Positions 18,735 to 63,768 of a DNA stretch of 64,000 nt are shown here, in pieces (the stretch's first letter is position 1; the number at the start of each line of letters is the position of its first letter). The notes below the pieces were generated by a model, which saw only the letters and a program-made list of their open reading frames with translations, was not told the origin of the DNA and did no database searches. Location of the stretch: positions 104,360-168,359 of the forward strand of contig JAWKNY010000003.1 of the NCBI GenBank assembly GCA_041391485.1. Direction: 5' to 3'. A program made the position numbers and the translations under genes. Source of the stretch: Bdellovibrionota bacterium (GTDB taxonomy: Bacteria; Bdellovibrionota; FAC87; UBA2466; JACKAF01).

Positions 18735-21700
18735 ATGCGGCTAAAACGCTTAGAATTACAAGGCTTTAAGTCATTTGTCGATCGCACCATTCTGCCGTTC
18801 GAACCGGGAATCACCGGCGTCGTCGGACCGAATGGGTGCGGAAAGTCCAATATTGTGGACGCCATCCAATGGGTGATGGGCGAGCAAAGCGCCAAGCACC
18901 TGCGCGGGGACTCGATGGCGGACGTCATTTTCAACGGCTCGGAGCACCGGGCGGCGACTTCCATGGCCGAGGTGAGCTTAGTCATGGACGCGAGCGGGGT
19001 GAATCTGCCCCCGCACCTTATCCCCATCGCCAAAGGCGATGAGATGGCCATCACGCGCCGGCTCTTCAGGGACGGTACCGCGGAGTACCTCATCAACAAG
19101 ACCCCCGTGCGCCTCAAAGACGTGCACGAAGTCTTTATGGATACCGGCGTGGGGCGCCGTGCTTATTCCATCATTGAGCAGGGCCAGATTGATCGCATGA
19201 TCAACGTGAAGCCCGATGATCGCCGAGGCATCTTTGAGGAAGTTGCTGGAATCACCAAGTATAAGACGAAGCGCCGAGAAGCGGAACGCAAACTCGAAGC
19301 CACTCGCCTCAACATAGAACGTGTCGACGATATCATCCGGGAATTGGACAAGCAGATCCGAAGTTTGAAGATCCAGGCCACCCGCGCCCGTAAGTACAAA
19401 GAGATTAAGGGCGAGCTTGAGAAGGTGGATCTCTTTCTCCTGGGACGTAAGCTTTTTTCCTTGCAGGAAACTCTCAATAGTTTGCAGGAGCAGCGGCTGA
19501 AGCTTCGCGAGGCCCGCTCGGCGCTGGAGACGGAATACTCCCGTTTTGAAGCTCAGTCGAGTGAGCTGGACGTCAAACGTGTGGACCAGGAACGCCTTTC
19601 GCAGACTGTTGAGGTGCAGGAGCGTGAATACACACTCAAGGTCCAGAAGCTTGAGAACCAGCTCGCCCTCTTTCAGCAGGAGCAGCAGCATATCGATCAG
19701 GCACAGCAGGCGCGTGCGCAGGAAAGCGAGGAGCTTTCCAACAAGCTCGTAGAGTCGGAACGCGAAACCGAAGAACTTTCTGAAGAGTTGCAAGGCCTAG
19801 AAAGCGCGCTTTTCTCGTCACGTGAAGCGATCGAGGCGAGACAAACAGAACTCACGGAAGTGCAATCGCGGCTCATCGAGGGTGAAAAAGAGCGGTCCCG
19901 GGCCCAGAAGGAACTTTCTCAGACGACCGAGAAGAGTATCTACCTCGAAAACCAACTCGAGCACGGACGCCAAAAAGAAGAGGAATTCAATGCGCGCAGT
20001 GAGGCGCTCAACGAACGCCTGACCCAATCGGTAAGCGCGCTCGACGCGGCCAAAAAAGCCGTCATTGAAGCGGACGAACGGGTAGCTGAGTGCCAGGAAC
20101 GCGGCCAGCGCGTCGAGAAAGAAGTTTCGGAGCTTTACCAGGAATGCCAGCAAATTTCGTCCAATCTTTCGGAAGTGGAAGATGAGCTTTTCCAAACGCG
20201 TGAGAAGTTTCACGGCATTCGTTCGCGTCTGGAATCTCTAAAAGAGCTTCAGGAGAACCTGGAAGGGTATTCGCCCACAGCCAAGGAAGTCCTGCTGAAG
20301 ATGGAAGTGGAAGGTGCGTTGCCGCTCGCCGAAGCCATGCAACCGGATTCAGACGTAGAAGAGCTGGTTGAGGTCCTCTTGGGCGAAGTCGAGCAATACG
20401 ATCGTCGTGCAGACGGCCGAGACGGCGCGGCTGATCGTTGAGAAAATCCGCGAGAGCCAGTTGGAACGCGTTGGAATTCTTGCGCTGGAGGAAATCCCTG
20501 CAGCGACACCTCAGGTGTGCCCCGTTGGCGCGCAACCGTTGATGGATCGCATTCGGGTCAAGCCAGGTTACGAGGCGGTCGCGCAAAAGTGGCTCGGCAA
20601 TATTTTTATCGTTGAAAACGATGAAACAGTCTTTGCGTTGCGTACACAAAATCCTGAAGCCACCTTCGTGACTCGAGACGCGCTACTTGCGGCCCACGCC
20701 AATCGTACTTTTACCTGTGGAACCACTCCGACGCGTCAGGGAATCTTTGCTCGTCGGCGACAGATCGAGGAGCTTGAGAAGCAGCTGAGCGAGGTCGAAG
20801 CTGAAGTCAGCGGTCTGGCGGCGCGACGGGAAGCCCTCTTGGCAGAACTCGAAACCCAAGAACGTCGCCACGCGGAGATGAAGGACAAACTTAGCTCCTT
20901 GCATGTGGAAGCGGTAGGCTATCGTAAGGAACGCGAAAAAGTTCAGATTGAAAGAGAACGGTCCGAGAAAGAGTACACACTCTTGACCGAAGAGTCTCAA
21001 ACCAACTCCCAGCAGCTGGATGATATCCGTGCCAAACTTGAAAACTGGGCTCAGGAACTCGGCGCCTTCCAAGAACGCAAGGTGGCGATGGAGCAGGAAG
21101 TGGAGCGTCTTGCCCAGGAGTTGGACGGTGCCCGCGAAAAGACGGCAGAAATTCAGAACCTCCTAAAGACTCAGCAGATCGAATATTCCAAGATGGAAGA
21201 ACGCTCAGCCGGTCTGGAAGAGAAACGAAACAGCCTGGAATCGCAGAATAGCCAGCTCCGGGTGCGCGTCGAAAGTCTCGCCAAAAAGACCGAGCAGGAT
21301 CGGGCGCGGCTTCAGTCCATTGAGGACGAAAGCGCGCGTGTACGTGAAGAACGCGATGAGAGTTCCGAACGTCGCAATGAGCTGGTCACACAGCTCTCAC
21401 AGGTGAGAGAAGCCTACGGCATCACCTGCCAGGAACTGAACGAAATTCGCCTGAAGAAGGAAGCCATCCAAGGGGAACGTTCGGCGGCTGCCGATCGCAT
21501 CCAGGAAGTGGAAATCCGGTTGGCGCACGAAGAATCCAATTTTGAACACCAGAAGAATATTTCTCTGGAACGCTACAACCAACAGGCGTCTCCACAGGAT
21601 GAGGCGGCACAACTCAACCTGGAAGAGGTCCCGCTTTTCCAGGGGCAGGTTAAAGACGAATGGCTTAGCCTACCCACCGAGGAAAAAGACGCGCTCATGG

Positions 21701-22332
21701 AAGAGCACGTTGAAAATCTGCGCGCCAAAGTGGGCCGCTACGGTGAGGTGAACCTCACCGCGATCAACGAGTTTGAGGAAGTGCAAAAGCGGCACGATTT
21801 CCTGACCACTCAGAAGTCTGATTTGGAAAACTCTATCAAGATCCTTGAGCAGGCCATTAAGCGCATCGACGAGACGACGGAACGCCGCTTTCGTGAGACG
21901 TTCGAGGGCGTGAACGAAAAATTCCAGGAGGTCTTTCCCATTCTTTTCAACGGTGGAAAGGCAAAGCTTGCTCTCACCAATCCCGAAAACATTTTGGAGT
22001 CCGGGGTCGATATCATGGCGATGCCGCCTGGAAAACGTTTGCAGAGCATCAGTTTGCTGTCAGGTGGAGAAAAGGCTCTTACTGCGGTGAGTTTGGTACT
22101 CGCCATCTTTGCGCGAAAGCCCAGTCCTTTCTGCTTGCTCGATGAGGTGGATGCGCCTTTGGATGAAGCAAACGTCTCGCGCTTTAATACAGTCATCAAG
22201 AAGATGGCCACGAAAAGCCAATTTATCCTGGTGACCCATAACCGCAAAACCATGGATATTGTGGATGCGCTCTTTGGCGTGACAATGGAGCAGGCTGGTA
22301 TTTCCAAGATGACATCCGTACGCTTGAACTAA
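18735..22332 (+). pseudogene. smc: chromosome segregation protein SMC, interrupted by one frameshift near 20400 (ORFs 18735..20441 and 20368..22332)
   Basis: N-terminal Walker A GPNGCGKSNIVDAI; long coiled coils; hinge ...GEVEQYD / IVVQTAETARLIVEK continues in the +1 frame; C-terminal LSGGEKALTAVSLVLAIF...LLDEVDAPLDEANV; total about 1200 aa. Confidence 0.8.
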
Positions 22333-29461: not shown

Positions 29462-31672
29462 GCGGCTTCCGAGTCGCTGGAGGGCTGCGCCTCGGCTTTC
29501 TTGGGCTGCATGTAGTACCGGTATGCGGAATCCAGACTAGCTTCCAGGCGCGTGTTGGTAAGCACCGTGTAGAGTGGCGCCCCGTCTTTCCGATGCAGAT
29601 CAATCATTCGCGCCGATTCCATGAGCTCCGAAGTAGTAATCGAGCCCTCGGGTACGGCGAAGAGTACCGCGTCGGAAGATTCAATCAAGATGCCGGTTTC
29701 CACAAAGTAGATAGGACCCGCGTCGACAACCACATAGTCAAAATGCTGTTTTGCGCGTTGTAGTAACGAGATCAGATCTTTCTGCAGATTCATGACATGT
29801 TCTTCCGAAGTTTTACCTCCGGGAGAGATGGGGCAGACTATCAGGTTTCGGTTGCCGCGCCATTCGTTCAGAGTCTGGTTTTTGATTAGATCCATCACCC
29901 ACGCAAGACTCTGGGCGACTGAGTAGTTTGCCCCCACGCTGACGGAAGTAATTCATCAGCTTTCGATTGGTGGCTTGGTTGTCGCCGTCAACGAGTAGGA
30001 CTTTCTTGCCGAGCTTGGCTAGCGCTGCAGAAAGGGCTGTGGCTGTAATCGTTTTACCTGCCATCGCTCTTGAACTGCAAACCAGCACAATTCGCTTTGA
30101 GGAAATGGTGCGCATGAGGCGAAACGCGAGTTGAGCCGTTTGAAGATTTTCCTCAAAACCCATTGAAAGAATTTTGCGTTTTAACGAGCGAATGTGTGGA
30201 AACTTTCCAAGGTACATCGGGCTCTGAAACGACTTCAGCTGTGAAGATCCCACGATAGTTTCTCGGTATATGTCCAATCCCACAATTCCACCGATTATGA
30301 GAAGCGTGACGGCAAAGCTCAATAGAACGAGTTTCTTCGTCTTGCTGGCGCCCAAGATATTTGAGTCCAGCATTGGATCCTGCAAGATTACTAATTTGCT
30401 GGTTCGGACATCTCCCTGGGTGATCACCGCAAGGTAATTCTCAGTGAGTACCTGTTGCATTTTTGCATATTGTTTTTGTACGAAGAGGAGCTGTTCTAGC
30501 TTTGCCTCGAGTTCGGGGTATTTGTTCATTTCAGACTTGTACGAATTCACCTGTCGTTTCACTTCTTCGTACATCGCCTTTGCACCTTTTTCTTCTGCTT
30601 CAGCGATTTGCACCATGCTTAGGGCCTTCTCCAAACCTTGTTGGAGTGCCCCGGTATCGTAGAACTTCTCGGTGTCCATTTCCTCTGAGAGCTGACTTCT
30701 CAGTCTGCGCAAACGCCGAGAGACATCCGCCTGTGACGCCGAGGGGAGGCCACTTTTCTGCTGACTCAAGAGAGCTGCTTCAAATTTTGCAATTTCTGTC
30801 ATGAGGGCGCGGATGCGAGGTTCATTGGTTTTGCTGACGCTTTCTTTCATCTGGGTTTTGAGTTTGCTTACCAGATTGCGCGTTTGAACCAGCCGCACGC
30901 TTTTTTCGGCAATGATCTGTTCTGCTTTGGCCATGGCACGTTGCGCTTCAATATAAGCTCGATACCGTTCCTCTAGCAGCTTCTCCCGGTGGGGCAGGTT
31001 GTTTTGACGAACGAATTCAGCGATAGCTTCGTTGGCTTTCTGAAGGTTATCATTTGTTTCTTGGACTTTTCTTTCAAGGAAGTCCGATACTTTCGCGGAA
31101 CGTTTTGCGGCGATTTCCAGATTGAGATCCAGCAAGGATTCGCCTATCAACTTTGAGATGCTAAGTGCCTGTTCCGGACTAGAACTTTTGAAGCCTATGG
31201 AAAAGTTTCCTCCCTGAATATCAGTTGTGAACGAAGTTCTAGCTAGAAAGTCAAAGTAGCCCCAATCGTAGAGATTGGCTGAAATCTCGTGCTGCTTCCC
31301 GAGGATGATGTACCTGACTATATCTTGGAGAGCGACTTCAAGGCCGGTTGAAGCGGGCTTAATGACTTGCTTTTTTTGAGTCAGCTTTTCTTTTACCGCA
31401 TTGTACACGGGATAGGACGCAACCAACGCCCTTTGAGTGAGGATGAGGTCCGTTCGCTCTCGATCCTTGAAAAGACCGGAGAACATTCCTCGGGTTTCTC
31501 CCAAGGTGACCTCAGGAATTGAAACAAAAATTTGGGTGCGAGCGATGAATTCGGCGGATAGGCTGCGGACAAATAGAATGAGAAAAAGATACGCGATCAG
31601 GCACGCGCCAATAACCCGGAACTTCCGGAGGCGGATTAGATTCGTAATTTGTTCAACTAAGGCCTTATCCAC
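29458..31672 (-). pseudogene. polysaccharide co-polymerase / BY-kinase (Wzc-like tyrosine autokinase), one frameshift near 29940
   Basis: 619-aa ORF has a Wzz-like periplasmic domain, coiled coil, TM and Walker A (MAGKTITATALSAALAKLGKKVLLVDGD); the 159-aa ORF in another frame carries Walker B DYVVVDAGP and a C-terminal tail. Confidence 0.7.
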
Positions 31673-39165: not shown

Positions 39166-40164
39166 GAACGCTGCAAGAATTAATGAGTGCGACAGCCCCC
39201 TTTGCAAAAGAGGACCTGCGCAAAAGCTGGTGGCATCTGATTTCGACGTCGATCGTGTTGGGATTGTTGCTGGTCGGGACCTTGAGTCCGCTTCCTCTTG
39301 TTTTGCGAATTGTGATGAGCTTACTCGCGGGTGGCGTGACGGTACGGATGTTCATCATCTATCATGACTACCAGCACGGAGCGATTTTTCGTAACTCGTT
39401 AGCTGGCCGTCGATCATGAACACTCTCGGGGTCTCGGTTTTAAACCCTCCGAATATCTGGAATCGTTCTCATAATCACCACCATAGTCGCAATTCGCAGA
39501 TTGCCACCGCCAGTATCGGCTCGTTTCCCATTATGACGGTAAGCGAGTACGCGAAGGCACCTTGGCAAGCGCGTCTGCGCTACTGTTTGAGCCGCAGCCC
39601 GTTACCGTTTTTATCGGGGCATGTACTTATCTTTGTGGTCGGTATGTGCCTTAGCTCGTTTGTGAAGGATCCCAGAAAACATTGGGATTCGCTCGTGGCT
39701 CTCCTTGTTCATGTGGCACTTATTTGGGGGCTGGTGCATCTAGCCTTACGGCACTTGTATTGGCCTACCTTCTGCCTTTGTACGTGTCGTGTATGCTCGG
39801 GGCCTACCTCTTCTACATCCAACACAACTTCCCATCGATGCAGCTGAGACCCCGTGAGGAATGGACATTCTTGTTTGCGGCGCTAAACTCCTCGTCCTTC
39901 ATGGAAGGAAGCGCATTTGTGCATTGGCTAACGGGGAATATCGGTTACCACCATGTTCACCATCTAAATTCCCGTATCCCGTTTTATAGGCTGCCTGAAG
40001 CGATGGCAGCCATACCGGAGCTTCAGAACCCAGGTCGGACCTCGCTTCGTCCTCGGGAGATTGTGCGTTGTCTGAAACTCAAACTCTGGGACCCTCGGCG
40101 CAATCGAATGGTTTCGTTCGCTGAGTGTCACCCGGTGCGGCTGCTAGCGCCGGACTTCCAATAA
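39162..40164 (+). pseudogene. membrane fatty-acid desaturase (three His-box di-iron type), two frameshifts
   Basis: Three ORFs in three frames carry His box 1 (HDYQHGA), His box 2 (WNRSHNHHHS) and His box 3 (GYHHVHHLNSRIPFYRLPEA); frame changes near 39410 and 39700-39840. Confidence 0.65.
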
Positions 40165-40199: not shown

Positions 40200-41942
40200 A
40201 AAGCTGGAGCTTTTTAACCATAGCTCTCGTGAGTAGTCTTGAAGACCTCTTGTGAACGCCATCTGAATTTGGCCTCGGCCTTTACAAGGCGAGGGGCGTC
40301 TAGTCTGGTGGATTCCTTTTCTTTTCGCCGCCAGTGGGCTGATGGAGTCCTCAAGCATCATCATCCTTTTCACGACTAATTTCGTTTCTTCCGTGCCGGG
40401 AGTCGGGCCGCACGGCGCAGCTAGCGGAGCGGATTTCCGGATTTTCGATTCCACTCATGGGGTCGGGGCTTTTGTAGTCATCTATGGTGTTTCGGCCCTA
40501 ATGCAGTACTCGATCCACGTTTTAGAAGGGATCCAGTCATCACCCATGTCGAAATGAAGCGTCGAGCGACGATCATTTCCGATGTCCTTAGGGCGCTGAG
40601 TGGTCGCATTTGAGTTCGCTCTTTGAGGTTGAACGTGCATGTTCTTCTTTCCGGCGCCTTGTACTCTCTTCGCATGGGACTGACCGCACTGCTCGCGATG
40701 GCTTCCTGATGGATTGGTTCTGCTGCGTTTGTAGCCATTGCTTTTGTGACCTCCTCTCCCTTGTTCTGGGAGCTTTGGTCGCTGGCTTGGCATACTTGGT
40801 AGTTTACCTGCGCATAACACGGACGATCCGTCTGAATGCGTCGGAGTCACCACGTGCCCACAGCGAATTACATCGAGAGTACGGGACATCCTGCACAATC
40901 TGAAACTATGGAAAGTTAGTGCTGATACTGAGCGTATCAACCTCAAACCTGAATCCAGCGTTGCAAGAGATAAAAAAAATCGAAGTAACATCCAAGATTC
41001 TGCTTAAGAATCGATTCATGTTTTTGGTGCTCGGTGGTTTTTTTGTGTTTGTTCTCACGCTAACTCGATTCTCACTTCAGGTTCGGCCATTAGCTCTCTT
41101 GCGATCATCGTTCTTTTCCTTCGTATGTCGACAAAGTTTTCAATATCCAATCGGTAGTTCTGTCGATGGCACATCACTATCCTGTGGTGAGATGCTAGTC
41201 GATATGAAAGGACATCCAGAATCGTAAAGTGGAACCGCTTGCAGGCACGTGCAAACAACCCCTAAAAACAGCGAATGGTTTTCGAGCGTAGCGTCTTTAT
41301 CCGAGCAATGGCCAGAGTGTGTTTACCGACTTGAACTTGGTACATTGAGAGGGGACAATTCGGGGGGATTTTAGGGCCTTCAGGGATTGGGAAATCTACT
41401 TTGCTGACCTGATTGTGGGTTTGCACCGGACAGCGGAACTGTTTCGTGGATGGAAAACCACTTCCGGTTTCGATCTCTTTACTGGAGGCGAAGCATCGGA
41501 TTCCTCACTCAGGACGCCCCACTCGTCAGCGGAACAGTCCGAGAAAATATTCTCTGGGGGGCAGAGTACGACAGAAGAGCAATTCCGCCGTTCGCTCAGC
41601 GATGCGAACCTCTCTGATTGGGTATACTCATTGCCCAAAGGCATTGATGCAAAAGTTACCTCGGGCGGTATTCAGTTTTCTGGAGGGCAACGCCAGCGGC
41701 TGGCTCTTGCCCGGGCACTCTATAGAAAAGCCTCTTTGCTCCTGTTGGACGAGCCAACCAGTTCGGTTGACAAAGAAAGTGAAAGACAAATCCTGAAAGC
41801 CATCGATCAACTTAAGGGAAACACGACCATTGTACTGATCACTCACAATCAGCAGATTCTCAAGTCGGCAGATGCCGTTTATACAGTCTCCAAAGGCGGA
41901 GTTGTGCGCCTTGAAGAAAAGTCGATCAGCGGTGCTGCATAG
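40200..41942 (+). pseudogene. ABC exporter (fused TMD-NBD), heavily degraded; only the C-terminal 175 aa of the NBD remain as an ORF
   Basis: 41415..41942 encodes the ABC signature LSGGQRQRLALARAL, Walker B LLLLDEPTS and H-loop ITHN. Walker A GILGPSGIGKSTLL is readable at about 41370 in another frame followed by a stop. 40200-41340 has no coherent ORF (decayed TMD) and locally low GC. Confidence 0.5.
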
Positions 41943-44062: not shown

Positions 44063-44695
44063 CTAGAGAGACATCAATTTCGCAAAAAAACGCTTACTCT
44101 TGGAGACATCGGTGGGTTCGTACTCGATCTGGTTCTGTTGCAGGAAGCGGGTAACGTATCGGAAGATGCCTTCGGCGTCGTCAGAGGGCTGAATTTCAAT
44201 TTCAATCTCGTAGATCGTTTCGTCCAGAATCTTTGCCTTGTCTACTTCGATGACTAGTCCACTAGGTAGGCGGACGTGAGAACGCTTGGTCTTAATCTGG
44301 CCCAGGTAGTTCAGCTTTCGTGTGGCTACGGGAAGGTGTTCTAGGATTTCCTCAGGCAGCTCGACATCCATTTCGCCTTTTACCATTGAGAGCAAGTCAG
44401 TCACTTCAAGAGGAGCGGTTATTTCTCTGCGTATCTTGGGTGGGTGCTGGGTATTGACCACTTTTTTGGAAGGTATCTTTAAAGTGACTTCTCCTTCGGT
44501 TTTGTTGGTTAGACGAAAGCGCAGGCGGGTTTTTTTGTCATACAGCTTGAAGTCTTTGGTATCAAAATAGTGATTGCGCAGTTTGAGTACGCCCAGCTCC
44601 TGAACCTGCCTGAGTTGAAGGAGGCGGCTGTACAGAAGCCTTCGTGAGCGAGAATTTGTACTCAACTCGTCAGCGTCCGGATACTTCCGTAGCAA
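44063..44695 (-). CDS. CYTH-like (triphosphate tunnel metalloenzyme) domain protein, putative
   Basis: Alternating charged beta-strands (LRFRLTNKTEGEVTLKIP, TIYEIEIEIQ) reminiscent of the CYTH/CyaB fold; weak by-eye assignment. Confidence 0.35.
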   Translation of the reverse strand: MLRKYPDADELSTNSRSRRLLYSRLLQLRQVQELGVLKLRNHYFDTKDFKLYDKKTRLRFRLTNKTEGEVTLKIPSKKVVNTQHPPKIRREITAPLEVTDLLSMVKGEMDVELPEEILEHLPVATRKLNYLGQIKTKRSHVRLPSGLVIEVDKAKILDETIYEIEIEIQPSDDAEGIFRYVTRFLQQNQIEYEPTDVSKSKRFFAKLMSL

Positions 44696-44740: not shown

Positions 44741-46508
44741 TCAACATAGAGTCGACACACTCCTCCTCCCGGCGCGCAAGAAGTACCAGAAATCACGTTG
44801 AGTAACGATTGTAGTTAGAATCAAACCGCAAATCCATAACAGCCCCAGCGGCTGCTGCATAATCCAGAATTGATGTACTGCATTATCGTTAGCGAAAAAG
44901 AAAAGATGCCGGTGTTCCTGGTTGATGACGTAACCAATGAAAGGCGGCGATTGGGATTCCGGTGGCGGTCTAAATATGATGACTGCCGATCGCGGTAATC
45001 CGTTGGAATCTGGCCACCGGCTAGTCGGATTCTCCCGACTGCGAGAACGTTCGCCGGGGGTGTTGCATTGACAAGAAAAGTGTCTTGCCATCGTCACTAA
45101 AGCAAGGACCGGTGAATTCCGCCTCTCTTGGGGCGGACGCCATTTGGACTGCTCGGCCTGCCGCTGGCCCCGAAAGGGGGACGAGGAAGAGCCCGTTGTT
45201 CTTGAACGATGCGTACGGCGACGAGCCAATCGCACTTCCGGAGATATCAGGTGAACCAAAGATCCCCATGTGCATCGAATACGACGTTGTCGGGGCAGGA
45301 AAATCCGGTAGATTCCCCGCCGGTCATGAAGGTAGAGGACGAAAATTTTAGAGAACCTGACGTTGTTTTGCTCCTCTACGCGAAGGAGCGTGCCAAAGTG
45401 GTTTCCTTGGGGGCGGTTGTTTGTGAGAGCGACAAAGGCGGCACCCGTCTTTGATCCAAAGCACTCCTCAGGGTCGATCCAGCAGCAGTCGCCCCCACTA
45501 GGTGGGCGGCCTCGCGTGCGCGTGGATTAGCACGTCCAACTGATCCTTATACTTGTTCTGTAGGGCGGTGTGTTCCTCTCGAAGTAGCGGAATCCATCGT
45601 CCGCCACTCGTATCCGCGGCGTATAAGATGCCCGATTCCGAATTGTTGCTCCTTGAGACACCTGGAAGAGGTGGCAATTTGGTCCTCGGAGTCGTCCCCA
45701 GAATATAAAACGGCCCGCCCGTCCTTTGCCCGTGTGACCGTGGCGCCTTCGTGAGCGAATCGGCCGCCCGCCACAAGCTTCTTTGCTTTTCCATTTTTCG
45801 GGTCCACCCCCCGACTACCCAACCGTAGTGCTCAGGCGATCGGGGGAATACCGACTCCCAGCCGTACAAACTCGCCGCTGTTCCGTCACTATAGAAGTTG
45901 TCGTAGTTTTCCTCACAGGTAAGGACTGTATTCCATGGGGTGAGCCCGCCACTGCAATTTGCGAGTGTTCCAGTAGCTGCCCTGCTTCCTTTTATAGTGT
46001 GCCCTCCAGCGAACGGGATTTCGGTGGCTCCCGTCAGCCGTTTGTTTTTGGGAGAATTAGAAACGACTCGCCATTGCCCTGTTGTTTGACGCTCAATGTG
46101 GAGAAAGGTTCCGCCCACAGCATCCATTTCCTGAAGAACTTCACTTTTCCCACGCGGCCTTTCTGGCCGCTAAAAAGCGTTAAATGGACCGGTGTTTCGT
46201 GGTTGACCCAGAGAAGCGCTTCATTTTTGGATTGGGAGATGAAAGCGATAAAATCGTTGTCATTGAAGCGAACTTCGCCCTTCTTGTTCAGGGGGATTCC
46301 AACCTCGCAATTACGGAGTACCAGGCCTGGAGCCAAAACAACTCGATCCTCTGAATTGGGTGCCAGACCAAATGGAGGCTCGACACTTTGTTTGCCTGAG
46401 GAAGCCCAACGCGGCCTTTGTTGTCAGGCCGATCACTCCCAGGTGGAGCGCGGCCGAGGTACGGCCCATGAATCTAAGGAATTCACGTCGGTTGAGGTAG
46501 TTGTCCAT
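44741..46508 (-). pseudogene. Tat-secreted PhoX-type alkaline phosphatase (DUF839), multiple frameshifts
   Basis: Twin-arginine signal NRREFLRFMGRTSAALHLGV (46311..46508); LWVNHETP block; NCSGGLTPWNTVLTCEEN (PhoX NCAGG.TPWGT.LTCEE) in a different frame; at least 4 frame changes across about 1.77 kb. Confidence 0.6.
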
Positions 46509-46598
46509 TTGGTACTCCAGAATTGGGCAGATTCTAAAAGGTACGTATTAAAGTCGCAATAATACTTTGTAAATTGTTGAAGGTGTTGGAAGCGAGGT

Positions 46599-48517
46599 CT
46601 AGGTTGCACTCAGTCGGTGGGTTTTTACAAATGAGGCCAAGCAGGACAGAGCAAGGACTCTACTGGCGTGCCCTCGGCTTGTTGAATCCGATTCAAACTG
46701 CTGCCAGACCTTTCTGGGCAACTCAGTGTTGATCCCCAGGCCTCTCCACAGTTCCTGGTCCTCTAAATAGGAAAGGAGCAAGTTCCGTAGGGGGCCTCGT
46801 AGCCAAGCGGCCCAAGGGAGGTGGAACCCCTGCTTTTTTCGCAGGTAGATTGCCTTCGGAAGGTCTCCGACAGCGTCGACTAGAAGTGGCTTTGGGTAGT
46901 CCGCAGGGCGTTTCCATTTGCCGGGAACTCCGATCATGTACTCGAGAAGACTCCGACTTAGGAAAGGTACACGGAGTTCCAGGCTGTTCGCCATGCTGAA
47001 GTTGTCGCAGTCCCTGAGAAGAACATAGCGTAAGTAGGTTTGAAGCTCGATGAGAGAAATCTGAGTTTCGGGGGCGAATCCTTGGACACTTCCTCTCAGG
47101 CTCTCTACGAGAGAGTCATCGACTCCGCTGGTGTAGCAAAGAGTGGGAGCTTGCTGCGGAAACGAAAGGTGCTGTTCCCGAACAAAAATCTCGCGCCTCA
47201 ACAACTGAAGATCCACAATGTGACTACGACGGACAAATACGGAGGCCATCTTGTCAGCGTGCATAGAGGGTACTTGGCGCGCCAAAAAAGCTAGTGCCAC
47301 TCGTGCAGGTCCAAAGAGGTTCGAAATTTTTCTCAAGCGCAAGGCCAAGGGGACTTGCCAGAAGGTCGGGTACCCTCCAAAGAGCTCGTCTGCACCGAGC
47401 CCGGAGAGGACTACTTTTAGGCCAGCTTCACGTGCTGCTTTAGAAACCAAAAAAGTATTGAAACCATCTATACTCGGTTGGTCTAGTTTCTCTAGAAACG
47501 TGGGAAAGTCGTCAAGTAGATCCTTTTCCGTGCGTCGAATGAAGTGGTGATGCATTCCAAGTTTCTTCCCCAATTCTTTTGCGAGCCGGCTCTCATCCAG
47601 ATCGGTCTGCTCGAATCCGAGAGTGATGGCATCCAATCCCCTTTGCACTTTGCTGGCAAGGATAGCAAGTGCGCTTGAATCAATTCCACCGGACAAAAAC
47701 AAACCCACGGGTACATCGGAAACAAGGTGCTGCTCCAACGAGTTCTGTAGTAGCTCACGGATGTTCTGGACACAGGTATTTCGATCCGAAGGGATCTCTC
47801 GGTGGTCGGCTGTCGGCAGCTTCCAGTAAGGAGTTGGGGACTCCATTGTTCCGTCTTGGCGAACGAAAGAATAGGTCCCTGGCTCGAGGGAACGAATCCC
47901 CGCCACTAGGGTTTGGCTCCCCCACACGGATCCTTGGGCAAAATAGGAGCTAAGTGCGGAGCGATCGATCTGGCGCTCAATCCAGGGCTCACCTAGCGCC
48001 AGTAGGGAGCGCACCTCAGACGAGAAAAACAATCCTCCTTTGGGTGAGCGATAATAGTACAAGGGCTTTATTCCCATCCGGTCACGACACAACCAAAGCC
48101 TTCGGTGATCGGCATCCCAGAGGGCGAAAGCGAACATTCCTTCCAATTGATGGACGGCTGCGGGTCCCCAGGCCCGATAGGCCTTAAGAATCACTTCGGA
48201 ATCGCTTTCCGTCTCGAAGTGGTACCTCCAAGCGTGAAAGTTTATCTTGTACGGCGCGGAAGGATTTCCCCGTTGTACGTCAACCAGTTCTTGTCACCAC
48301 CCGTTGCTGAGCTGTCTGACATGGGCTGGTGTCCGCCCGGCGAGAGATCAAGGATAGAGAGTCGTGTGTGACCGAGTACGACTGAGGCTGTTTCATTCTG
48401 AATGCTTTGGACGCCTATGTCATCCGGACCACGGTGGCGTAGCGCGCTACTCATTTCATTTACGAGAGGTAGGGCTAGGGCGTTTGAAAGGCCGATGGAA
48501 CCTGCGATGCCGCACAT
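46599..48517 (-). pseudogene. asnB: asparagine synthase (glutamine-hydrolysing), one frameshift between 48194 and 48242
   Basis: N-terminal class-II GATase MCGIAGSIG...RGPDD (91-aa ORF) plus a 531-aa body with FAFALWDADHRRLWLCRDRMGIKPLYY and PP-loop SGGIDSS. Confidence 0.75.
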
Positions 48518-52574: not shown

Positions 52575-53722
52575 GTGAGAACCGCAAATTCCACTAATAG
52601 TACCATCGTGCAGAACACCGCGAAAGTGAACACGGTATTCCTTCTCCCTTCCCTCGAGCTGGGCGGCGCAGAGAAGACTACTCTAAACTTACTTTCCAAC
52701 GACGCGGTGAAGGATCTCAATCCCTCACTTTGGTGTTTTAGAAAAAAAGGAGAACTCTTGTCGGTGGTTCCCGACGAGATTTCAGTATCCGACTTGGAAG
52801 CGTTCACGGCGATTCAAGCCGTGCGAAGTCTTATTGCGAAAGTTCGCTTGAATCGCCCCAGCTGATCGTTTCAGTACTTACACCGGCAAATGTTCTTGCT
52901 GCAATCGCTGTACGCTTGAGTGGGCATTCGTGCAAGCTTGTGGTGGTGGAGCATGGTTCGCTGAAAACAATGCAGGGCGAGAGCGGTGGGCTGGTGCGGT
53001 GGTTACCCTTTCTGCAAAAGATTGCCTATCGACTCGTGGATCGCATCGTGTGTGTGTCGGAAGGTCTAGCAGAAGAAATCTCCAAAGACACGGGGATTTC
53101 AAGAGATCGTTTTGAGGTAGTTTACAACGCGGTTTTGACAAAAGATTTTCATGAACGTGCGAATAGGGCCGTAACGCACGAATGGATACGCAATCGACCG
53201 GAGTGTTTGATCGTGATGGTGGGTAGATTGCATCCAGTTAAGGATTACGAGCTTGCCGTTCGGACGCTGGGTGAGCTGAAACGGCATTTGGATTGCAAAC
53301 TCATCGTGGTAGGTGAGGGCCCGTACCGTTCCGAGCTGGAGAAGCTGATTGTGGATATGAAGTTGTCGGACGCTGTTTCATTGGTCGGCTTTCGAGAAAA
53401 TCCGTTGCCGTACATCGCTGCCGCGGACGTTTTCTTGATGACCTCAAGAATGGAAGCCCTACCGACAGTACTGATTGAGGCATTGTGTTTGAGAGTCCGG
53501 ACGATCTCCGTTGACTGCCCTTGGGGGCCGCGCGAAATTTTTCGGAAACTTCCGGGGGGAGTATTGGTACGCGATCGTACGGTCGGTGCATTGGTGGAAG
53601 GCATCCGTAGTGCCTTAGTGGCAGATAGACCTGAACCGTCGGCCGAAGAAATGGCCGTGTTTGCGGAATCAGAGATTGCTATGCGCTATCAGAAGCTGGT
53701 TCAGCAGCTACTGGATAGATAG
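52575..53722 (+). pseudogene. glycosyltransferase family 4, one frameshift between 52865 and 52916
   Basis: N-terminal VFLLPSLELGGAEKTTLNL (GT4 N-domain) in one frame; C-terminal IVVGEGPYRSELE...LMTSRMEALPTVLIEAL (GT1 motif) in another. Confidence 0.65.
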
Positions 53723-55880: not shown

Positions 55881-56345
55881 CTATGGGCTGAATTCGATCT
55901 CTAGGGCGATTTGTGGGAACTCTCTTGCCACTTTCTCGCCCGTAACCGCTTCGTAGCGCCCACAAGGATCTCGAAAGCCGGGATAGCTGGCATCCGTTTC
56001 GCAGGCTACCCGAACGGCCCGCAGTCGCGCGTAGTTTACTTGCTCGATGATGGCCACGTTTCCACTAGGAGCTACCAGTTCCTGTAGAACCGCACAGGCT
56101 GGTTCTTGGTATTGGGCGTAACAGGATTCTTCGATCTGCTTGAGAGCAGCGGCCTGCGCGGCTTCTGGGCTTTGGGGCGCTGGCTCCTCCGCCTGTGCCC
56201 CGTGCGCGGTCACTTGAAAAAGGAGAGTGATTATAAGAAGTTGTTTAGTCATGGTGCCTCCAATCATACTCTTATCTACTCTTATTGTAGCGAGCGGGGG
56301 ACCCGGCCACGACCCATGCCTCTGTCGCGATTGAGGGAGAGCCAA
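55881..56345 (-). CDS. hypothetical secreted cysteine-containing protein
   Basis: Likely true start MTKQLLIITLLFQVTAHGAQA (signal peptide) within the ORF; 4 Cys in the mature part. Confidence 0.35.
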   Translation of the reverse strand: MALPQSRQRHGSWPGPPLATIRVDKSMIGGTMTKQLLIITLLFQVTAHGAQAEEPAPQSPEAAQAAALKQIEESCYAQYQEPACAVLQELVAPSGNVAIIEQVNYARLRAVRVACETDASYPGFRDPCGRYEAVTGEKVAREFPQIALEIEFSP

Positions 56346-56533
56346 TGGAACGCGAAATCGAACACAGCTTTCAGTGTCCTTACTGCTGGTCCTCTATCTC
56401 TATGTTGCTGGATGCTTCTGTGGGGGAGCAGGCCTATGTGGAGGATTGTGAGCGCTGCTGCCAGCCTATACAGATTCAATTCCACTGTGAGCGGGGACAG
56501 CTGCTTTCTTTTGAGGCCGAGCGGGCGCAGTGA
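56345..56533 (+). CDS. CPXCG-motif cysteine-rich small protein (zinc-ribbon-like)
   Basis: 62 aa with CPYC...CERCC arrangement typical of the CPXCG family. Confidence 0.55.
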   Translation: MEREIEHSFQCPYCWSSISMLLDASVGEQAYVEDCERCCQPIQIQFHCERGQLLSFEAERAQ

Positions 56534-56534
56534 G

Positions 56535-58843
56535 TTAGGCGGCCGTCTCCACGGCGGTGGCGGCGATTAGAATACTTTTTAAACGCTCTCTTTGAGAGTC
56601 GTTCAGGCCCTGCAGGCTGAGCCCGGTGCGGAATTTTTGGGGCTCCAGCTCCCGCGCCCAACAGACAGACGCGATAACCGGGAATAGCCCGATGGATTGA
56701 AGTTCCTGCTCAAGATTCTTATCCGGTCCGAGTAGTCGGATCTGCACGCTCACCTGCTTGGCGAGGTAAGCGTCCATCACTAAGCCAATCCCGGAACTCG
56801 AAAAATCAACGAGCGAGGCAGGGCCATACGAGGTTTCGACTTGAACCGGACAGTTTCGTCCAACGAAAAAGCGCGGATCCTGACGACTCATTCCTTGTTG
56901 GCGGCGGTACTCATCGAGGGCTTGATCGCGTTTTTGTTCATCAAGGTGTTTCGGCGTACATTCGTAAACGGGTTGTGGCGTTTCCAAGTGTTTGATTCTA
57001 ATTTGGCGCAATTTGAAGGCCGCGAGAGCGAAATCCGCGTGTAAACGCATTCGGGTCGACTCGCTCACGAGGATACCGAAACTATCTGCGGCCGACTCCA
57101 ATCGCTTGCAATAGTTCACCCCGTGACCGATGAGCGTGATCTCGATCTTTTTCCCGGTTCCAAGATTACCGACCTGCACCAAAGAGGTGTTCACGCCGAT
57201 CCGCAGGGGGAAAACCGGTCTCTTTTCCGAAATAGCCGATTGCGCCCGCTCCACGGCATCTTCTTGGAGGGCGATGGCGCATTGGATGGCGGTCTCCGCG
57301 TGGTTCTCTGGGGAAACGTCCCCATCGTATGCGTAACCAAAAAAGCAGAGCACCCCGTCTCCTTGGATCTTGTCTACAATCCCGCCGTGGGCGTGGATCA
57401 CTCGGATGATTGCCTGAATCTCATGGCGTAAATGGGCAAAAGCTTGTTTTGGGGGAAACTGTTCGGCGGCGATGGAGAACCCCACGATGTCGATGAAAAC
57501 CGTTGTGACTTCGGTTTCTGTGGGGTCCAAGGTGAACCCGCGCTTGGTGAGCAGTGTCTGCAGCTTTTCGCTCGGGACAAGTCCCTCAGAAAATCCTGAG
57601 TCAGGCGCAGCGTCTTCGCTAAATCACGGCTTGTGAGAGCGAACAAGCTAGCCCCCGTTAGACTGAAGCAACACATGGCTGGAAACCACGGGACGACGAC
57701 AGAGGCGTAAGAAAAGAGCCCGAGGCCCAAAAGAACCAGGGAAAAGTTAATCGCCAAGTAGCTTAACCAAAACCGCACGCCGGTGAGTAGTGTGGCCGTA
57801 AAAAACGCTGGGATACAAAGCGCAAAAACAAAAAGATGGCCGGCGGGCATTCGCCTGAGCCATTGCCCCGTCAGGACACTATTGATAACGGCAGCCGAAA
57901 GAAAACCACCGGGAATGGTGCCAAACGGACTTTCGACCATGTCGGCGTTGCCCGTATAGAGAGCCGGAAGCACCACCACATGGGTCCCGTCGGCGAAAGC
58001 GTCTTCTTTCTCGCCGGACCGCCAGCGTTTGACGGGACCGGAGAGATTGTAGGTGCGTTCATAAAAAGCGTTGGGGTTGGGCAGGTTAACTAATAGCTCA
58101 CTGCCGAAGAGCGGGACGTGTTCTCCATTTACCAGAAGCTGCTCTTCATCAAACTGCACGTCTTTGAAGGCGAGGAGCGGGGCCAGCGGCAGAACCTTGT
58201 CCCCTTGCATTCGAATAAAGGCCTGCAGCGAAAAGTTGCCGTTGTACATGAGATGCCCCACCTGACTCACTTCAGCTATTTGGGGATCGGGACCGTACAG
58301 GGTTCCAGATTGGAGAGAACAAAACGAGGGAACTTCGTTGGCGGCATAGTGTTTGGGATCGAATTCCACTCGATCCGTGCTAAGTGGCGTCCGCCCGGAG
58401 ATCGGCTCGGCCGCCAAAAAACTCCCCACTACAAACCGAGTTCTGGATCCTTGCAGCTTCTGGAGCTGTTCGATACCCGGCCCTTTGGGTAGAGCGAAAA
58501 TTCGGTTCACAAGAACGGAACTGGCTCCCCGTTTTGCGAAATTTTGCAAGACTCCGGACCACTCGCCAATCTCCAGGTCCTCACTTTTTAGGTAGGCAAT
58601 GGCGGAGTCACCCAGCCCGTAGATTGCCAAGCGATCGTCGACACGAGGATCCCGCTTGAGGCGGTGGCGGGTTTGGTACTCCAAGGGGCGGCTAATCTGG
58701 TGCTCTAAAAAGGCTCCAAACTTCGAGCCGGAGATCACTGAAAAAAAGAGGCCCGATAAACTGGCGTAAAGGGCGTAGCGGCGCGCGTTTTGTTCGGTGA
58801 AATTCAGCCATTTTTTCTTCCATGCTTCGTTGGACGCCATCAC
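56535..58843 (-). pseudogene. CHASE2 sensor - class III nucleotidyl cyclase - PilZ multidomain protein, one frameshift near 57590 (ORFs 57398..58843 and 56535..57530)
   Basis: N-terminal TM + CHASE2 periplasmic domain + 3 TM helices (481 aa). In the other frame a CHD cyclase (TTVFIDIVGFS...KIQGDGVLCFFGY) and a C-terminal PilZ-like domain (RFFVGRN...VDFSSSGIGLVMD). The in-frame linker upstream of the cyclase start has no Met. Confidence 0.65.
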
Positions 58844-58986: not shown

Positions 58987-61734
58987 GTGAAAAGACTCGG
59001 GTTTTATCGCGCCGCGCGAGGGATCGCGGCCTTAGGGCTTCTTTCAAGTTTGCCTGCCTGCCTTTTTTCCCTTTCCATGCAAGAGGACCTCGAATCGCGT
59101 CCTACGCCTGTGTCCGGCGGTTACGTTCTCGACTATGACAACATTCGAAATGACTGTTTGTACGTTGAAGAATCTGAACATCAGTACCGCGTGACCTGTA
59201 GAGCGGTTGCGGCTGATAGCAACGGAAACGAACACGAGCCCATTTCCATAAGTCCCGGCCTGGAATTGCGCTTTGAGGATCCCAATAGGATCTTCGGATC
59301 GGAATATTCTGTAGCAGACTGCGGTGGCGATACGCTGAAGCGCTGCTACCTCATTGACCTCGACGAAGTGGTTTCTACGAAAATTGAGTTTCCTCTCTCG
59401 GTATCCGCTCCCAATCGGGAACCGCGGACAGAAAAAGAAGAAATCCTCATTCCGTACTCTATTCGTACCATTGGGGTGATGCCCGAGTTTCCCGCCCAAT
59501 ACCGAACCATTGCGCAACAAACGGGAACTACCAACACCGATGCGGGCGTGGTGCCTCTTGTACAGCGTGGCTTTGAAAACGTCGCGCTATCAACGGCGAA
59601 TTTCCCGTCGGAGCTGTACGATATCTGTTTCCGTGGCAACGATGCCTACTTGATGGCGGGAAGTGGCGGACAATACGGTGGCTTCATTTACCGAATCGCA
59701 GGGAGTGTGTATTCGGGGCAGCACCGAATTGGGGAACAGGTGAGTCTGTACGCGGGATCGGTGAACATGGGAAACTACACCGAGTACTCGTCCCGCCTTC
59801 GCATCCGCTTCGGTCAGCAGACTCGAATGGCTTGTCACCCCGATGGGCTCTTGATTGTGGACGAAGCCGAGTTGTCCCAGGATTCGATCAATCCCCGACG
59901 CATCCTTTTTGTACGGGACGAAGGTCCCGTTGAACTTTTGGGGTCCGGCGAGGCGGCAAATTTTCCGCAGTTTACACCGTCCGCTCCGGCAACCTTTGAG
60001 CCCATTTTTCCGGTGGTGGGTACTGATAATAAAATTTACGTAGCCGCCTATGTGAATTCTGAAAGGGAGGAAGTCGGTATCTTCCGAATTCTTGGCAAAA
60101 AGAAAATGCAACGTGTGGGAACACTTGGGAACCAACGTACCATCGGATTGTACGCCGGAATTGCGGTCGATCCGACGACACTTTACTTCGCTCAGGACTA
60201 CGGTCGCGAATTTTCTGTTTTGAATACCGCGACCGGTAGCGTAACAAGTCTGCGCTTCACTCAATTTGAAGCCAACGAACCTCCGTTTCATCTCGGCGGT
60301 AGCTTGGCGAAAGATGCTTCGGGGCGCGTTTACGTTGCGTCCCCTTTCACCTCTGACTGTATCTGGCGACTCAATGGAACACAAAGAAGCCATTACATGG
60401 GTAAGTGCAATGAAGGCGGCTACGCCGGCGACGGAGAAAATTTCTCGTCCTCTGCCATCCGATTGCAGATTCGTAAGATGGCGTTTGCTGGAGAGGGATC
60501 GCTCTACATGACTCATGACGGGGCAGAGACAGGCAGTGGCAACATGCGTCGCGTGGATAGGAACGGTAAGCTCACCACCGTTTGGCAGTCCCGTTTTCGC
60601 CCGGTCACAGATGGGGCGAAGGTGAAACCTGCCGAAACAGTTTTCCATAACATTGTAGACGTGGAGTTGGGACCAAACGGAGAAGTCTATTACGCGGTCG
60701 CGTCTTCTCAATATGGTTACAATCGGATTCGTACGAGGATCGCCCCCAATGGAGTGGTCACCACGTTGGCGGGGGCTCAGACCGGTCCTTATGTAGATGG
60801 CCCCGCCTTGGCAGCGCGGATGGATAGACCCCGTTCGCTGCATCTTGCAACCGATGGGAGTTTGTACTTTACCGCTGAGAGCCTGGACTATGTGCGGCGG
60901 TACCATGTCGAAAACGGTCAAGGTATGGTTACGACCGTGGCCGGTCGTTTTGGCGACGGGCGCTACAATGGGTTCAGTGGAGACGGTGGGCCGGCGGTGG
61001 ACGCGCGCTTCTTCAATGTGAGAGATGTAGTCTCCGATGCTAGCGGCAATTTTTACCTGAGCGATTCGGTGAACACGCGGGTCCGCAAGGTCGATACTGA
61101 GGGGATTGTGACGACGGCTATCGGCGGCCCGTGGAACGGCCCTTGTCTGGGCAGCTGCTTGAGCAGCCCCGAAGGTCTCAGTTTGGATGCCGCCGGGCAT
61201 CTCTGGGTAGTGCAAAAGGGCGTTTACTATGCCAGTGGTGGCCACCGACTCTCCCGCTTCGACATGCGAGACCCGTCGAACCCGCAGCTCGTATACTCCG
61301 TAGGAGACGGTACATCGGGCTTTGCAGGGGACGGAGGATCCGCGCAAGCGGCAAAGCTCAATGAACCCACCCGCATCGCGTCCGATAGCACCGGCCGTAT
61401 CTATTTTGTGGATCAGCGAGAGACCCGTGTCCGAGTGTTAGAACCGTCCACCAACGACGATGGCTCTACCGATTACAGCATCTCCACACTTTTCGGCGGA
61501 TCGTCGGCTGTAGATTGCGGTTCGGGAACCATTGAGGGCTTCAGTACGCTTCTCGATCTCAACGAGCGCATCCGCGCGTCACTTTCCGTTATCTGCGTGG
61601 CGATCATTCGAGGGCTTGATGTGACAGATAACTGCGATGCGGACGGCGGTAGTATTCGCATTGCGATCGCTCAGTGGGCGGCTCTTCAAAACCCCACCAG
61701 CAATATTACCCAGATTACGCGCTCCTGCCGTTAG
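58987..61734 (+). CDS. large NHL-repeat (six-bladed beta-propeller) lipoprotein
   Basis: Lipobox LSSLPAC; repeated NHL-like units (RPRSLHLATDGSLYFTAESLDYVRRY; PEGLSLDAAGHLWVV; PTRIASDSTGRIYFVDQRETRVRVL); 915 aa. Confidence 0.6.
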   Translation: MKRLGFYRAARGIAALGLLSSLPACLFSLSMQEDLESRPTPVSGGYVLDYDNIRNDCLYVEESEHQYRVTCRAVAADSNGNEHEPISISPGLELRFEDPNRIFGSEYSVADCGGDTLKRCYLIDLDEVVSTKIEFPLSVSAPNREPRTEKEEILIPYSIRTIGVMPEFPAQYRTIAQQTGTTNTDAGVVPLVQRGFENVALSTANFPSELYDICFRGNDAYLMAGSGGQYGGFIYRIAGSVYSGQHRIGEQVSLYAGSVNMGNYTEYSSRLRIRFGQQTRMACHPDGLLIVDEAELSQDSINPRRILFVRDEGPVELLGSGEAANFPQFTPSAPATFEPIFPVVGTDNKIYVAAYVNSEREEVGIFRILGKKKMQRVGTLGNQRTIGLYAGIAVDPTTLYFAQDYGREFSVLNTATGSVTSLRFTQFEANEPPFHLGGSLAKDASGRVYVASPFTSDCIWRLNGTQRSHYMGKCNEGGYAGDGENFSSSAIRLQIRKMAFAGEGSLYMTHDGAETGSGNMRRVDRNGKLTTVWQSRFRPVTDGAKVKPAETVFHNIVDVELGPNGEVYYAVASSQYGYNRIRTRIAPNGVVTTLAGAQTGPYVDGPALAARMDRPRSLHLATDGSLYFTAESLDYVRRYHVENGQGMVTTVAGRFGDGRYNGFSGDGGPAVDARFFNVRDVVSDASGNFYLSDSVNTRVRKVDTEGIVTTAIGGPWNGPCLGSCLSSPEGLSLDAAGHLWVVQKGVYYASGGHRLSRFDMRDPSNPQLVYSVGDGTSGFAGDGGSAQAAKLNEPTRIASDSTGRIYFVDQRETRVRVLEPSTNDDGSTDYSISTLFGGSSAVDCGSGTIEGFSTLLDLNERIRASLSVICVAIIRGLDVTDNCDADGGSIRIAIAQWAALQNPTSNITQITRSCR

Positions 61735-62547: not shown

Positions 62548-62944
62548 ATGATTTTTCAAGGCGTCACTGTTGATCGGGTTCTAAAATCCCTGCTGCCGCG
62601 GGATACGGAGGACCTCGCCATCCTGCGTTTTTTGGTCTATTGCGCTCAGCTCATCCAGCGGGCCGGACACACGGATCTTTCACTCAATCGGGTTGAAGCC
62701 GTCGCTTACCGCGACCCTCAGGTGCCGTCTGTCGAGTTTGATATCCAAAAGTTCATCTCGGGGATGTCGGAAGCCTCCAAGCGCTACTTCTACGGCCTCA
62801 TCGAAGCGGTGGACATCTACCAATCCATTAAAGGCCGGTCCCTGCATTCCGGATTCCTTGGTCGCGGATGATGACCCCACCGTCCACGAGCTACGCCAGA
62901 TCCGAGACATGTGCCTGGACGACGGCCTGCGTTCCGTCTACTAA
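62548..62944 (+). CDS. hypothetical protein, possibly frameshifted (ORFs 62548..62871 and 62693..62944)
   Basis: Two overlapping ORFs in adjacent frames, each with protein-like composition; no family recognised. Confidence 0.25.
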
Positions 62945-63016
62945 TCTCCACCCGCTTTTTCTATTGCGATAGGTGCCTTGACCTCGGCCCCTCCAAAAAG
63001 CTATACGTCAGTGTTT

Positions 63017-63768
63017 ATGGACGAAACTCGTTACCCCTTGGTCGTTATTCCCGCCCGTGGGGGTCGTCCCGCTTCCCCCAAAAGCCGTTGGCCAGAATCA
63101 TGGGAAAACCAATGATTCAGCATGTTTGGGAGGTGGCTGCGGCCTCAAAGCGTGTGGCAAAGGTACTGGTCGCAACCGACGATCGGGCGATTGTTGAAGC
63201 CGTGGAAGCCTTTGGTGGCGAGGCGGTCATGACGTCCGTGGATTTTGAAAGTGGCTCCGACCGTGTGGCCTGGGTGGCGGCACAGTGGGGCGCCCAACCC
63301 GATTCGATTGTGATTAATCTTCAGGGGGATGAGCCCTTGCTTGCCCCGGAAGCCTTGGATGGGTTGGTGCAGGTATTGGAAGAGAATCCGGAAGCGCAGA
63401 TGGCAACTTTGGCCGTGAAAAAGCAGAGCGAAGACGATCTCCACAACCCTAACGTGGTCAAAGTGGTATTGGATCGCGGCGGCGAGGCCCTCTACTTTTC
63501 GAGGGCCCCACTCAAGTCGGGGCCCGACTTCTTTTTTAAGCACATAGGCGTTTATGCTTTCCGGTTCGCAGCGCTGCAGAATTTCTGCCGCCTGGAAAGT
63601 AGCCCGTTGGAGAAAGTAGAACGTCTGGAACAATTGCGTGCTTTGCAGAACGGCTTTACAATTCAGGTCATTCCGATAGCTGAAGATACCGTCGCCGTGG
63701 ACGTTCCCGGAGACGTGGGTTTGGTGGAAGAGGCTCTTAAATTGCGTATTGAGGGGAGACATCCATGA
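63017..63768 (+). pseudogene. kdsB: 3-deoxy-manno-octulosonate cytidylyltransferase (CMP-Kdo synthetase), frameshift in a G5 run at 63059-63063
   Basis: ATG at 63017 gives MDETRYPLVVIPAR; after the G-run the other frame continues GSSRFPQKPLARIMGKPMIQHVWE...VLVATDD...NLQGDEPLL (KdsB motifs); TGA overlaps the pyrG ATG (ATGA). Confidence 0.75.

Follow-up and report, generated by a model that had tools for sequence, protein, structure and literature searches.

A gene on the minus strand (56535..58843) of a 64,000-nucleotide stretch of DNA from a Bdellovibrionota bacterium (assembly GCA_041391485.1, contig JAWKNY010000003.1, positions 104,360 to 168,359; hereafter the window) is an ordinary member of a large Bdellovibrionota family of CHASE2-class IIIb adenylate cyclase-PilZ receptor proteins. 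On balance, its product is judged to be a signal-gated, homodimeric membrane adenylate cyclase that is modulated by cyclic di-GMP (c-di-GMP) via its C-terminal PilZ domain and whose gene was split by an insertion or deletion error (indel) in the assembly.

Gene structure and frameshift site

Two overlapping open reading frames (ORFs) in different frames of the minus strand, ORF A (58843..57398, 481 amino acids, GTG start) and ORF B (57530..56535, 331 amino acids, TTG start), are the two halves of a single gene. With one nucleotide restored, translation from GTG 58843 yields a protein of 769 amino acids (769 codons plus stop), which is collinear over its whole length with intact homologues of 750-830 amino acids. 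An earlier interpretation by a model that saw only the letters and their ORFs (hereafter the original prediction) had overestimated the length of the joined protein at approximately 810 amino acids, but had correctly located a single frameshift near 57590, next to an A4 run. The frame switches at 57589-57587, adjoining a run of four T (57593-57590; A4 on the plus strand). Here, frame 0 of the minus strand reads ...LRLTQDFLRDLS... and meets a stop 62 codons on, and the other frame reads ...EGLVPSEKLQTLLTKRGFTLDPTETEVTTVFIDIVGFS..., a typical lead-in to a class III cyclase domain.

The frameshift lies in the cytoplasmic linker between the last transmembrane helix and the cyclase domain (57516..57643), for which an alignment of 23 family members, used throughout for statements on residue conservation, gives the consensus ALEGxVxPxxL. 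At the junction the closest intact homologue (P0034, 49% identity) reads ...LRLTKDFLDGLVPHDKLQQLL..., and the window reads LRLTQDF-L-EGLVPSEKLQTLL across the break. This comparison indicates that exactly one nucleotide of a Leu codon has been lost (TTT CT- GAG; 57587..57589), the missing nucleotide being placed at 57588/57587. Most simply, a CTGGAG would have been read as CTGAG.

In the public annotation the gene is represented by a 480-amino-acid 'hypothetical protein' (R3B54_03785, P0001) and a separate 316-amino-acid ORF (P0033), and the three-domain architecture is visible in neither of these gene calls. The 316-amino-acid ORF begins at a GTG within FIDIVGFS and would be without the first metal-binding catalytic Asp. 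In the repaired protein the order is one probable transmembrane helix, a CHASE2-like periplasmic region, three transmembrane helices, a class III cyclase domain and a PilZ domain, which is the arrangement originally predicted and is borne out by Pfam, homologues, hydropathy and structure models (for CHASE2 through the homologues only).

Cyclase domain

The Guanylate_cyc profile (PF00211) matched the joined protein at residues 444-607 (57024..57515) with 52.6 bits against a threshold of 21.9, and alignment and model agree in placing the class III (subclass IIIb) cyclase homology domain there. Invariant in the family are F450-x-D452-xx-G-F-S with the first metal-binding Asp (D452, 57491-57489), G495-D496-G497 with the second (D496, 57359-57357), R548, T570 (57137-57135) and the transition-state pair N577 (57116-57114) and R581 (57104-57102); most members share K492 (57371-57369). 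The wider family has Thr at the position of T570 in 126 of 131 sequences; at that of K492, 101 of 137 sequences carry Lys and 32 carry Arg.

The closest solved relative by sequence is CyaB of P. aeruginosa (3r5g; E 1.8e-18, 69.7 bits). In the alignment with CyaB, DKIQGD stands opposite DKFVGD and IEITLIGHGVNYCKRLES opposite MDYTIIGREVNLASRLES, and the metal-binding Asp pair and the Asn/Arg pair align as well, whereas Glu and Gly occupy the two substrate-specifying positions in the guanylyl cyclase Cya2 (2w01). Lys together with Thr, the latter in place of the canonical Asp, is the signature of class IIIb adenylate cyclases, enzymes that are also characterized by bicarbonate responsiveness. Since Lys492 and Thr570 are found here and not the Glu/Cys or Glu/Gly combinations for GTP, cyclic AMP (cAMP) is the predicted product; of the two products originally considered, cAMP and cGMP, only the former is retained. 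No catalytic residue is missing from the domain, which is assigned to class IIIb on its sequence.

An AlphaFold model of residues 420-769 reached a mean predicted local distance difference test (pLDDT) of 87.2 and a predicted TM-score (pTM) of 0.71. Its N-terminal part resembles Cya2, CyaB and CyaC with Foldseek TM-scores of 0.83-0.87 (target-normalised) at E-values of 1e-14 to 1e-16. The region that follows the Pfam match (residues 608-653, 56886..57023) contains, according to the secondary structure of the model, the final cyclase strands (E189-196 and E205-212 in the 350-residue numbering of the model) and a helical linker into the PilZ domain (H217-230).

PilZ domain

The PilZ domain suspected in the original prediction was recovered by the Pfam scan at residues 654-759 (56568..56885), where PF07238 scored 26.4 bits with the full protein and 30.5 bits with the domain alone (curated threshold, 22.5 bits). 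Like that of the cyclase domain, this match lies well outside chance expectation. Both putative c-di-GMP-binding motifs of such domains are present. The RxxxR motif is R654-Q-D-P-R658 (56885..56871), both Arg of which are invariant in the family. The [D/N]xSxxG motif is D680-F-S-S-S-G685 (56807..56790), 22 residues past R658, a distance of about 20-30 being usual, with G685 invariant and S682 present in at least 90% of the members. Of the motif pair named originally, RFFVGR and DFSSSGIG, the second was thus correctly recognized as DFSSSG, whereas RFFVGR represents an RxxxxR spacing and overlaps the true motif only in that its first Arg is R658. Among 165 family sequences, RxxxR was found in 155, [DN]xSxxG in 151 and both motifs in 142 (86%).

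A model of the last 136 residues (pLDDT 92.4) shows a beta-barrel followed by a C-terminal helix (H116-131). A sequence search of the PDB with the PilZ part gave no match at E<=0.01, and a fold search was used instead. Foldseek returned nothing but PilZ-domain structures among its top 20 PDB matches. BcsA with c-di-GMP (4p00; E 7e-5, 21% identity) ranks first, and MotI as well as the c-di-GMP-bound forms of MrkH, YcgR-PilZ and PP4397 also belong to the best matches; VCA0042 is a further member of the 20. Between strands of the barrel a short helix is inserted (residues ~728-735, H77-84 of the domain model, window ~56640-56665, minus strand), the family consensus of which is LDSxDGxLxxxLxxxGL.

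In the two-domain model the RxxxR stretch follows directly upon helix H217-230, which leaves the cyclase domain, and is the only place between the two domains where model confidence drops (mean pLDDT 75, residues 231-240 of 350), as is expected of the switch loop of an unliganded PilZ domain. Motifs and fold are those of a canonical PilZ domain, from which we infer c-di-GMP binding.

Sensor region and membrane topology

The probable N-terminal membrane anchor is the segment of residues 22-43, RYALYASLSGLFFSVISGSKFG (58715..58780), which is weakly hydrophobic and corresponds in position to the hydrophobic N-terminal segment of the homologues, yet stays under the hydropathy cut-off of 1.5 used. 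Three transmembrane helices are clear from hydropathy windows >1.5 at residues 332-400 (57644..57850). The periplasmic sensor region enclosed by these elements (residues 44-331, 57851..58714) is CHASE2-like. In the collinear family, 21 of 23 members match CHASE2 at E<=0.01 (best 8.3e-13), precomputed PF05226 matches are present for most homologues, and P0024, a CHASE2-cyclase without PilZ, aligns over 80% of the query. Because relatives match in this way, the region is regarded as a diverged CHASE2 domain by homology, although its direct match is below threshold.

Family size and distribution

A homologue search in a collection of 5.8 billion proteins, with the repaired protein as query, found the N-terminal half itself (P0001, R3B54_03785, from an NCBI Bdellovibrionota metagenome-assembled genome, MAG) and 22 intact homologues of 763-826 amino acids with 28-38% identity and >92% query coverage (exception P0022, 85%). 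Most of these 22 carry precomputed matches to PF05226, PF00211 and PF07238, and a Pfam scan of the 23 aligned members detected the cyclase domain in all of them, CHASE2 in 21 and PilZ in 20. A scan against NCBIfam returned sub-threshold matches only and no informative family.

For an estimate of family size, 1.84 billion cluster representatives (50% identity clusters) were searched exhaustively with HMMER, the cyclase-PilZ half serving as query. About 400 representatives matched at E<=1e-30. The best 150 all cover the query to about residue 335-345 and hence both domains; most of them are 750-810 amino acids long and match at their C-terminal end. The architecture is not rare. In a set of one genome per GTDB species, full-length matches occurred only in Bdellovibrionota (Oligoflexales, Oligoflexus, Bdellovibrio, Silvanigrella, Pseudobdellovibrio and Pseudobacteriovorax), some of them in MAGs labelled merely as proteobacteria; outside this full-length set the cyclase domain alone matches. 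Intact single ORFs with both PilZ motifs also exist in cultured isolates, namely Bdellovibrio sp. HCB337 (759 amino acids) and Oligoflexus tunisiensis Shr3, which makes the proposed function directly testable.

Proposed mode of action

Class III cyclases work as head-to-tail dimers with the active sites at the interface, and the RxxxR loop of solved PilZ proteins folds around c-di-GMP and changes the orientation of adjacent domains. In the proposed mechanism, the periplasmic CHASE2-like domain would signal through the three transmembrane helices and the conserved ALEGxVxP linker and thereby control the cyclase dimer, in which the class IIIb domains would convert ATP to cAMP. The C-terminal PilZ domain would bind c-di-GMP with an RxxxR motif that begins where the helix leaving the cyclase ends. 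Owing to this position at the end of the helical linker, the ligand would fix the linker and alter the pairing of the two cyclase domains. Binding of c-di-GMP may in this way change the pairing or mobility of the cyclase domains and tune their output, such that cAMP output would depend on the signal from outside as well as on the level of c-di-GMP in the cell. An effect of c-di-GMP on catalysis is suggested by analogy with other PilZ-regulated proteins. Its sign cannot be read from the sequence; activation would be a guess, modelled on BcsA.

Alternative explanations

The frameshift in the cyclase gene is most probably an assembly indel, for other genes of the window are broken in the same way with their conserved residues otherwise intact. 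At least six genes in the 64 kb, the cyclase gene included, are affected, all by small frame slips. A one-nucleotide frame error near 20391-20410, in the hinge region, breaks the gene smc (plus strand) into ORFs 18735..20441 and 20368..22332; joined at ...VLLGEVEQ/TIVVQTAE..., the gene encodes 1198 amino acids that fit TIGR02168 in one stretch over positions 1-1181 of 1181 (978 bits of the hidden Markov model score). A Wzz/BY-kinase-like gene with a P-loop AAA_31 domain (29458-31672, minus strand) is split at a G5 run (~29935-29931), and joining its ORFs extends the AAA_31 profile match from positions 3-44 to 3-149. An ABC ATPase gene (41330-41942, plus strand) has its Walker A motif just upstream in a different frame, asnB (46599-48500, minus strand) has the MCGI N-terminus in another frame, and the pieces of phoX (45200-46560, minus strand) are spread over all three frames. 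Fragments of genes for a fatty-acid desaturase (39682-40164, plus strand) and a GT4 glycosyltransferase (52916-53722, plus strand) likewise start or end in the middle of a Pfam domain, the remainder lying in other frames. The assembly therefore appears to carry many indel errors, and any 'pseudogene' in the window should be treated with suspicion.

That the break is genuine, leaving either a pseudogene or a 481-amino-acid sensor-only membrane protein with, at best, a soluble cyclase-PilZ fragment initiated separately at TTG 57530, is distinctly unlikely. It is present in the assembly as given, and the public annotation has two separate products; moreover, genuine breaks in so many genes of the window could mean a genome in decay. 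The uniformly small slips argue otherwise, as does the complete fit of the joined SMC protein to its profile. Within the cyclase gene itself, highly conserved family columns are preserved at 66 of 75 positions (88%) downstream of the break and at 31 of 41 upstream, and neither half contains an in-frame stop. No Shine-Dalgarno-like sequence is evident ahead of TTG 57530, and the public 316-amino-acid ORF, by its start inside FIDIVGFS, would lack the first metal-binding Asp. The original prediction had allowed for two separately expressed halves; instead, the break looks like one of many assembly indels in the window. Programmed -1 ribosomal frameshifting at the T run (GAU UUU C) as the link between both halves is barely conceivable. 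A tRNA-Phe on UUU could indeed slip back by one nucleotide on the U4 run, but the site lacks a canonical X XXY YYZ heptamer, the 121 nucleotides around and downstream of it fold no better than shuffled sequences (z = -0.59), and the homologues examined are all in a single frame at the junction, with F-L-[ED]-G and not the F-S-E-G expected from slippage. Programmed frameshifting was rejected on these three grounds, i.e. the missing slippery heptamer, the missing stable downstream structure and the single frame of the homologues. Given an assembly indel, the organism likely makes the full-length protein.

With regard to function, it is rather unlikely that the PilZ domain is intact in structure yet does not relay c-di-GMP, acting as a localisation or interaction module or binding the ligand with no consequence for catalysis. 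Non-binding PilZ domains do exist, e.g. PilZ itself and the tetrameric tPilZ (10.1101/814665; PMC12943098). In addition, an extra helix is inserted into the barrel, and 23 of the 165 family members (~14%) are without one strict motif, so that c-di-GMP binding may not be universal in the family. Against this stand the presence of both motifs here and in 86% of the relatives and the invariance of R654, R658 and G685; furthermore, all 150 best representatives retain the fusion in the same place, which argues for selection on a joint function. Very improbable is a cyclase that makes cGMP or another product, or that is dead and serves as a dimerisation scaffold only. The guanylyl cyclase Cya2 (2w01) does rank second among the solved relatives, and predictions of specificity from two residues sometimes fail; however, Cya2 has Glu where Lys492 stands here and Gly in place of Thr570, and the six catalytic residues are all present and invariant or nearly so in the family.

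Several observations, besides the incomplete motifs just mentioned, weigh against a c-di-GMP-modulated CHASE2-adenylate cyclase. The direct Pfam match to CHASE2 (PF05226) is below threshold (11.7 bits, E 0.19, vs 26.3 bits) and covers profile positions 161-248 only, and several near-invariant sensor residues are altered in this copy, e.g. D113N. The PilZ score is only modestly above its threshold, the substrate Lys is replaced by Arg in the 32 of 137 relatives, and no conserved neighbourhood points to a pathway: neither among themselves nor with the window do P0002, P0007 and P0011 have adjacent genes in common.

Comparison with known systems

CHASE2-cyclase fusions as such are known, as the original prediction stated. 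P0024-P0028 share the N-terminal transmembrane segment, CHASE2, three transmembrane helices and class III cyclase with the protein described here and differ in having no C-terminal PilZ domain. The catalytic domain of Cya2 (Sll0646) from Synechocystis (2w01), a protein that presumably also carries a CHASE2 domain, superposes at a TM-score of about 0.84 (target-normalised); in contrast to the present Lys/Thr, its specificity residues are Glu/Gly, it makes cGMP, and a C-terminal PilZ is lacking. P. aeruginosa CyaB (3r5g), which has a MASE2 membrane sensor, shares the Lys of DKxxGD, the Asn/Arg pair and the Thr that replaces the substrate Asp. In contrast to the predicted enzyme described here, CyaB has been proven to be one, and it has no PilZ domain. 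BcsA (4p00) likewise carries a canonical PilZ domain C-terminal to a catalytic domain in one polypeptide, and c-di-GMP lifts autoinhibition of its catalytic site through the RxxxR loop. The enzyme regulated in BcsA is, however, a glycosyltransferase and not a nucleotidyl cyclase, and the inserted helix belongs to the PilZ domain of the cyclase family.

PilZ fusions listed in the preprint of Galperin and Chou comprise BcsA, Alg44, REC, GGDEF, EAL, HD-GYP, MCP and CheC (10.1101/814665). No description of a nucleotidyl cyclase-PilZ fusion was found in the full-text literature, a coverage that mostly leaves out subscription journals. The original view of the architecture as uncharacterized is upheld to this extent, but it is neither rare nor unannotated in public data: it is new as a described and studied system and not as a database entry, since automated annotations already show it with its three Pfam domains tagged.

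Most known crosstalk between cAMP and c-di-GMP is exerted via transcription or by cAMP on enzymes of c-di-GMP metabolism, examples being Bd1971 and a cAMP-dependent diguanylate cyclase of Leptospira, the latter cited in PMC6717892. If the proposed mechanism is true, a cyclase with its own c-di-GMP receptor would show the opposite direction of crosstalk in a single polypeptide, and would offer a simple in vitro system for the control of a dimeric catalytic domain by PilZ. Bd1971 of Bdellovibrio is a cAMP-activated EAL-type c-di-GMP phosphodiesterase and, in the same phylum, also links cAMP and c-di-GMP in one protein; its logic is the reverse, as it senses cAMP and degrades c-di-GMP, and its domains (cyclic nucleotide-binding and EAL) are unrelated (PMC6717892). 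The family described here could provide the first cAMP-forming enzyme under direct control of c-di-GMP, and together with Bd1971-type EAL proteins it could close a reciprocal, CHASE2-ligand-gated loop in Bdellovibrionota; we give this proposal somewhat less than an even chance. Such a messenger loop would be a homeostat if c-di-GMP activates the cyclase and a bistable switch if it inhibits. In Bdellovibrio-type predators, PilZ proteins are numerous and enzymes that make c-di-GMP few (PMC3271064, PMC6717892), which makes the assignment of an output to one PilZ family useful. For the locus itself, the outcome is a typical family member whose split annotation is most probably an artefact of an error-prone assembly.

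Genomic context

The cyclase gene appears to stand alone, with no operon partners. It is convergent with a gene for a 62-amino-acid Cys-rich CPXCG zinc-ribbon protein (PF14255, 65 bits; 56345-56533, plus strand), the two ends lying within two bases of each other, and divergent from a gene for a 915-amino-acid protein with teneurin-type NHL repeats (58987-61734, plus strand), which is probably secreted or a lipoprotein. The NHL-repeat gene is absent beside the cyclase homologue loci examined (P0002, P0007 and P0011). A scan for promoters and terminators gave counts no better than those of shuffled sequences.

A large surface-polysaccharide gene cluster occupies about 29400-54600 and 62911-63768 of the window. 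It includes genes for a chain-length regulator/BY-kinase, an epimerase/dehydratase, a Wzy_C O-antigen ligase-like protein, GT2 and GT4 glycosyltransferases, an MBOAT acyltransferase, a polysaccharide deacetylase, an AsnB-like amidotransferase, an AMP-binding enzyme and a CTP_transf_3 cytidylyltransferase. The window also encodes a 210-amino-acid CYTH-domain protein (PF01928, 66 bits; 44063-44695, minus strand). Class IV adenylate cyclases and triphosphate tunnel metalloenzymes both belong to the CYTH superfamily, and this protein could represent a second link to nucleotide signalling or simply be a triphosphatase.

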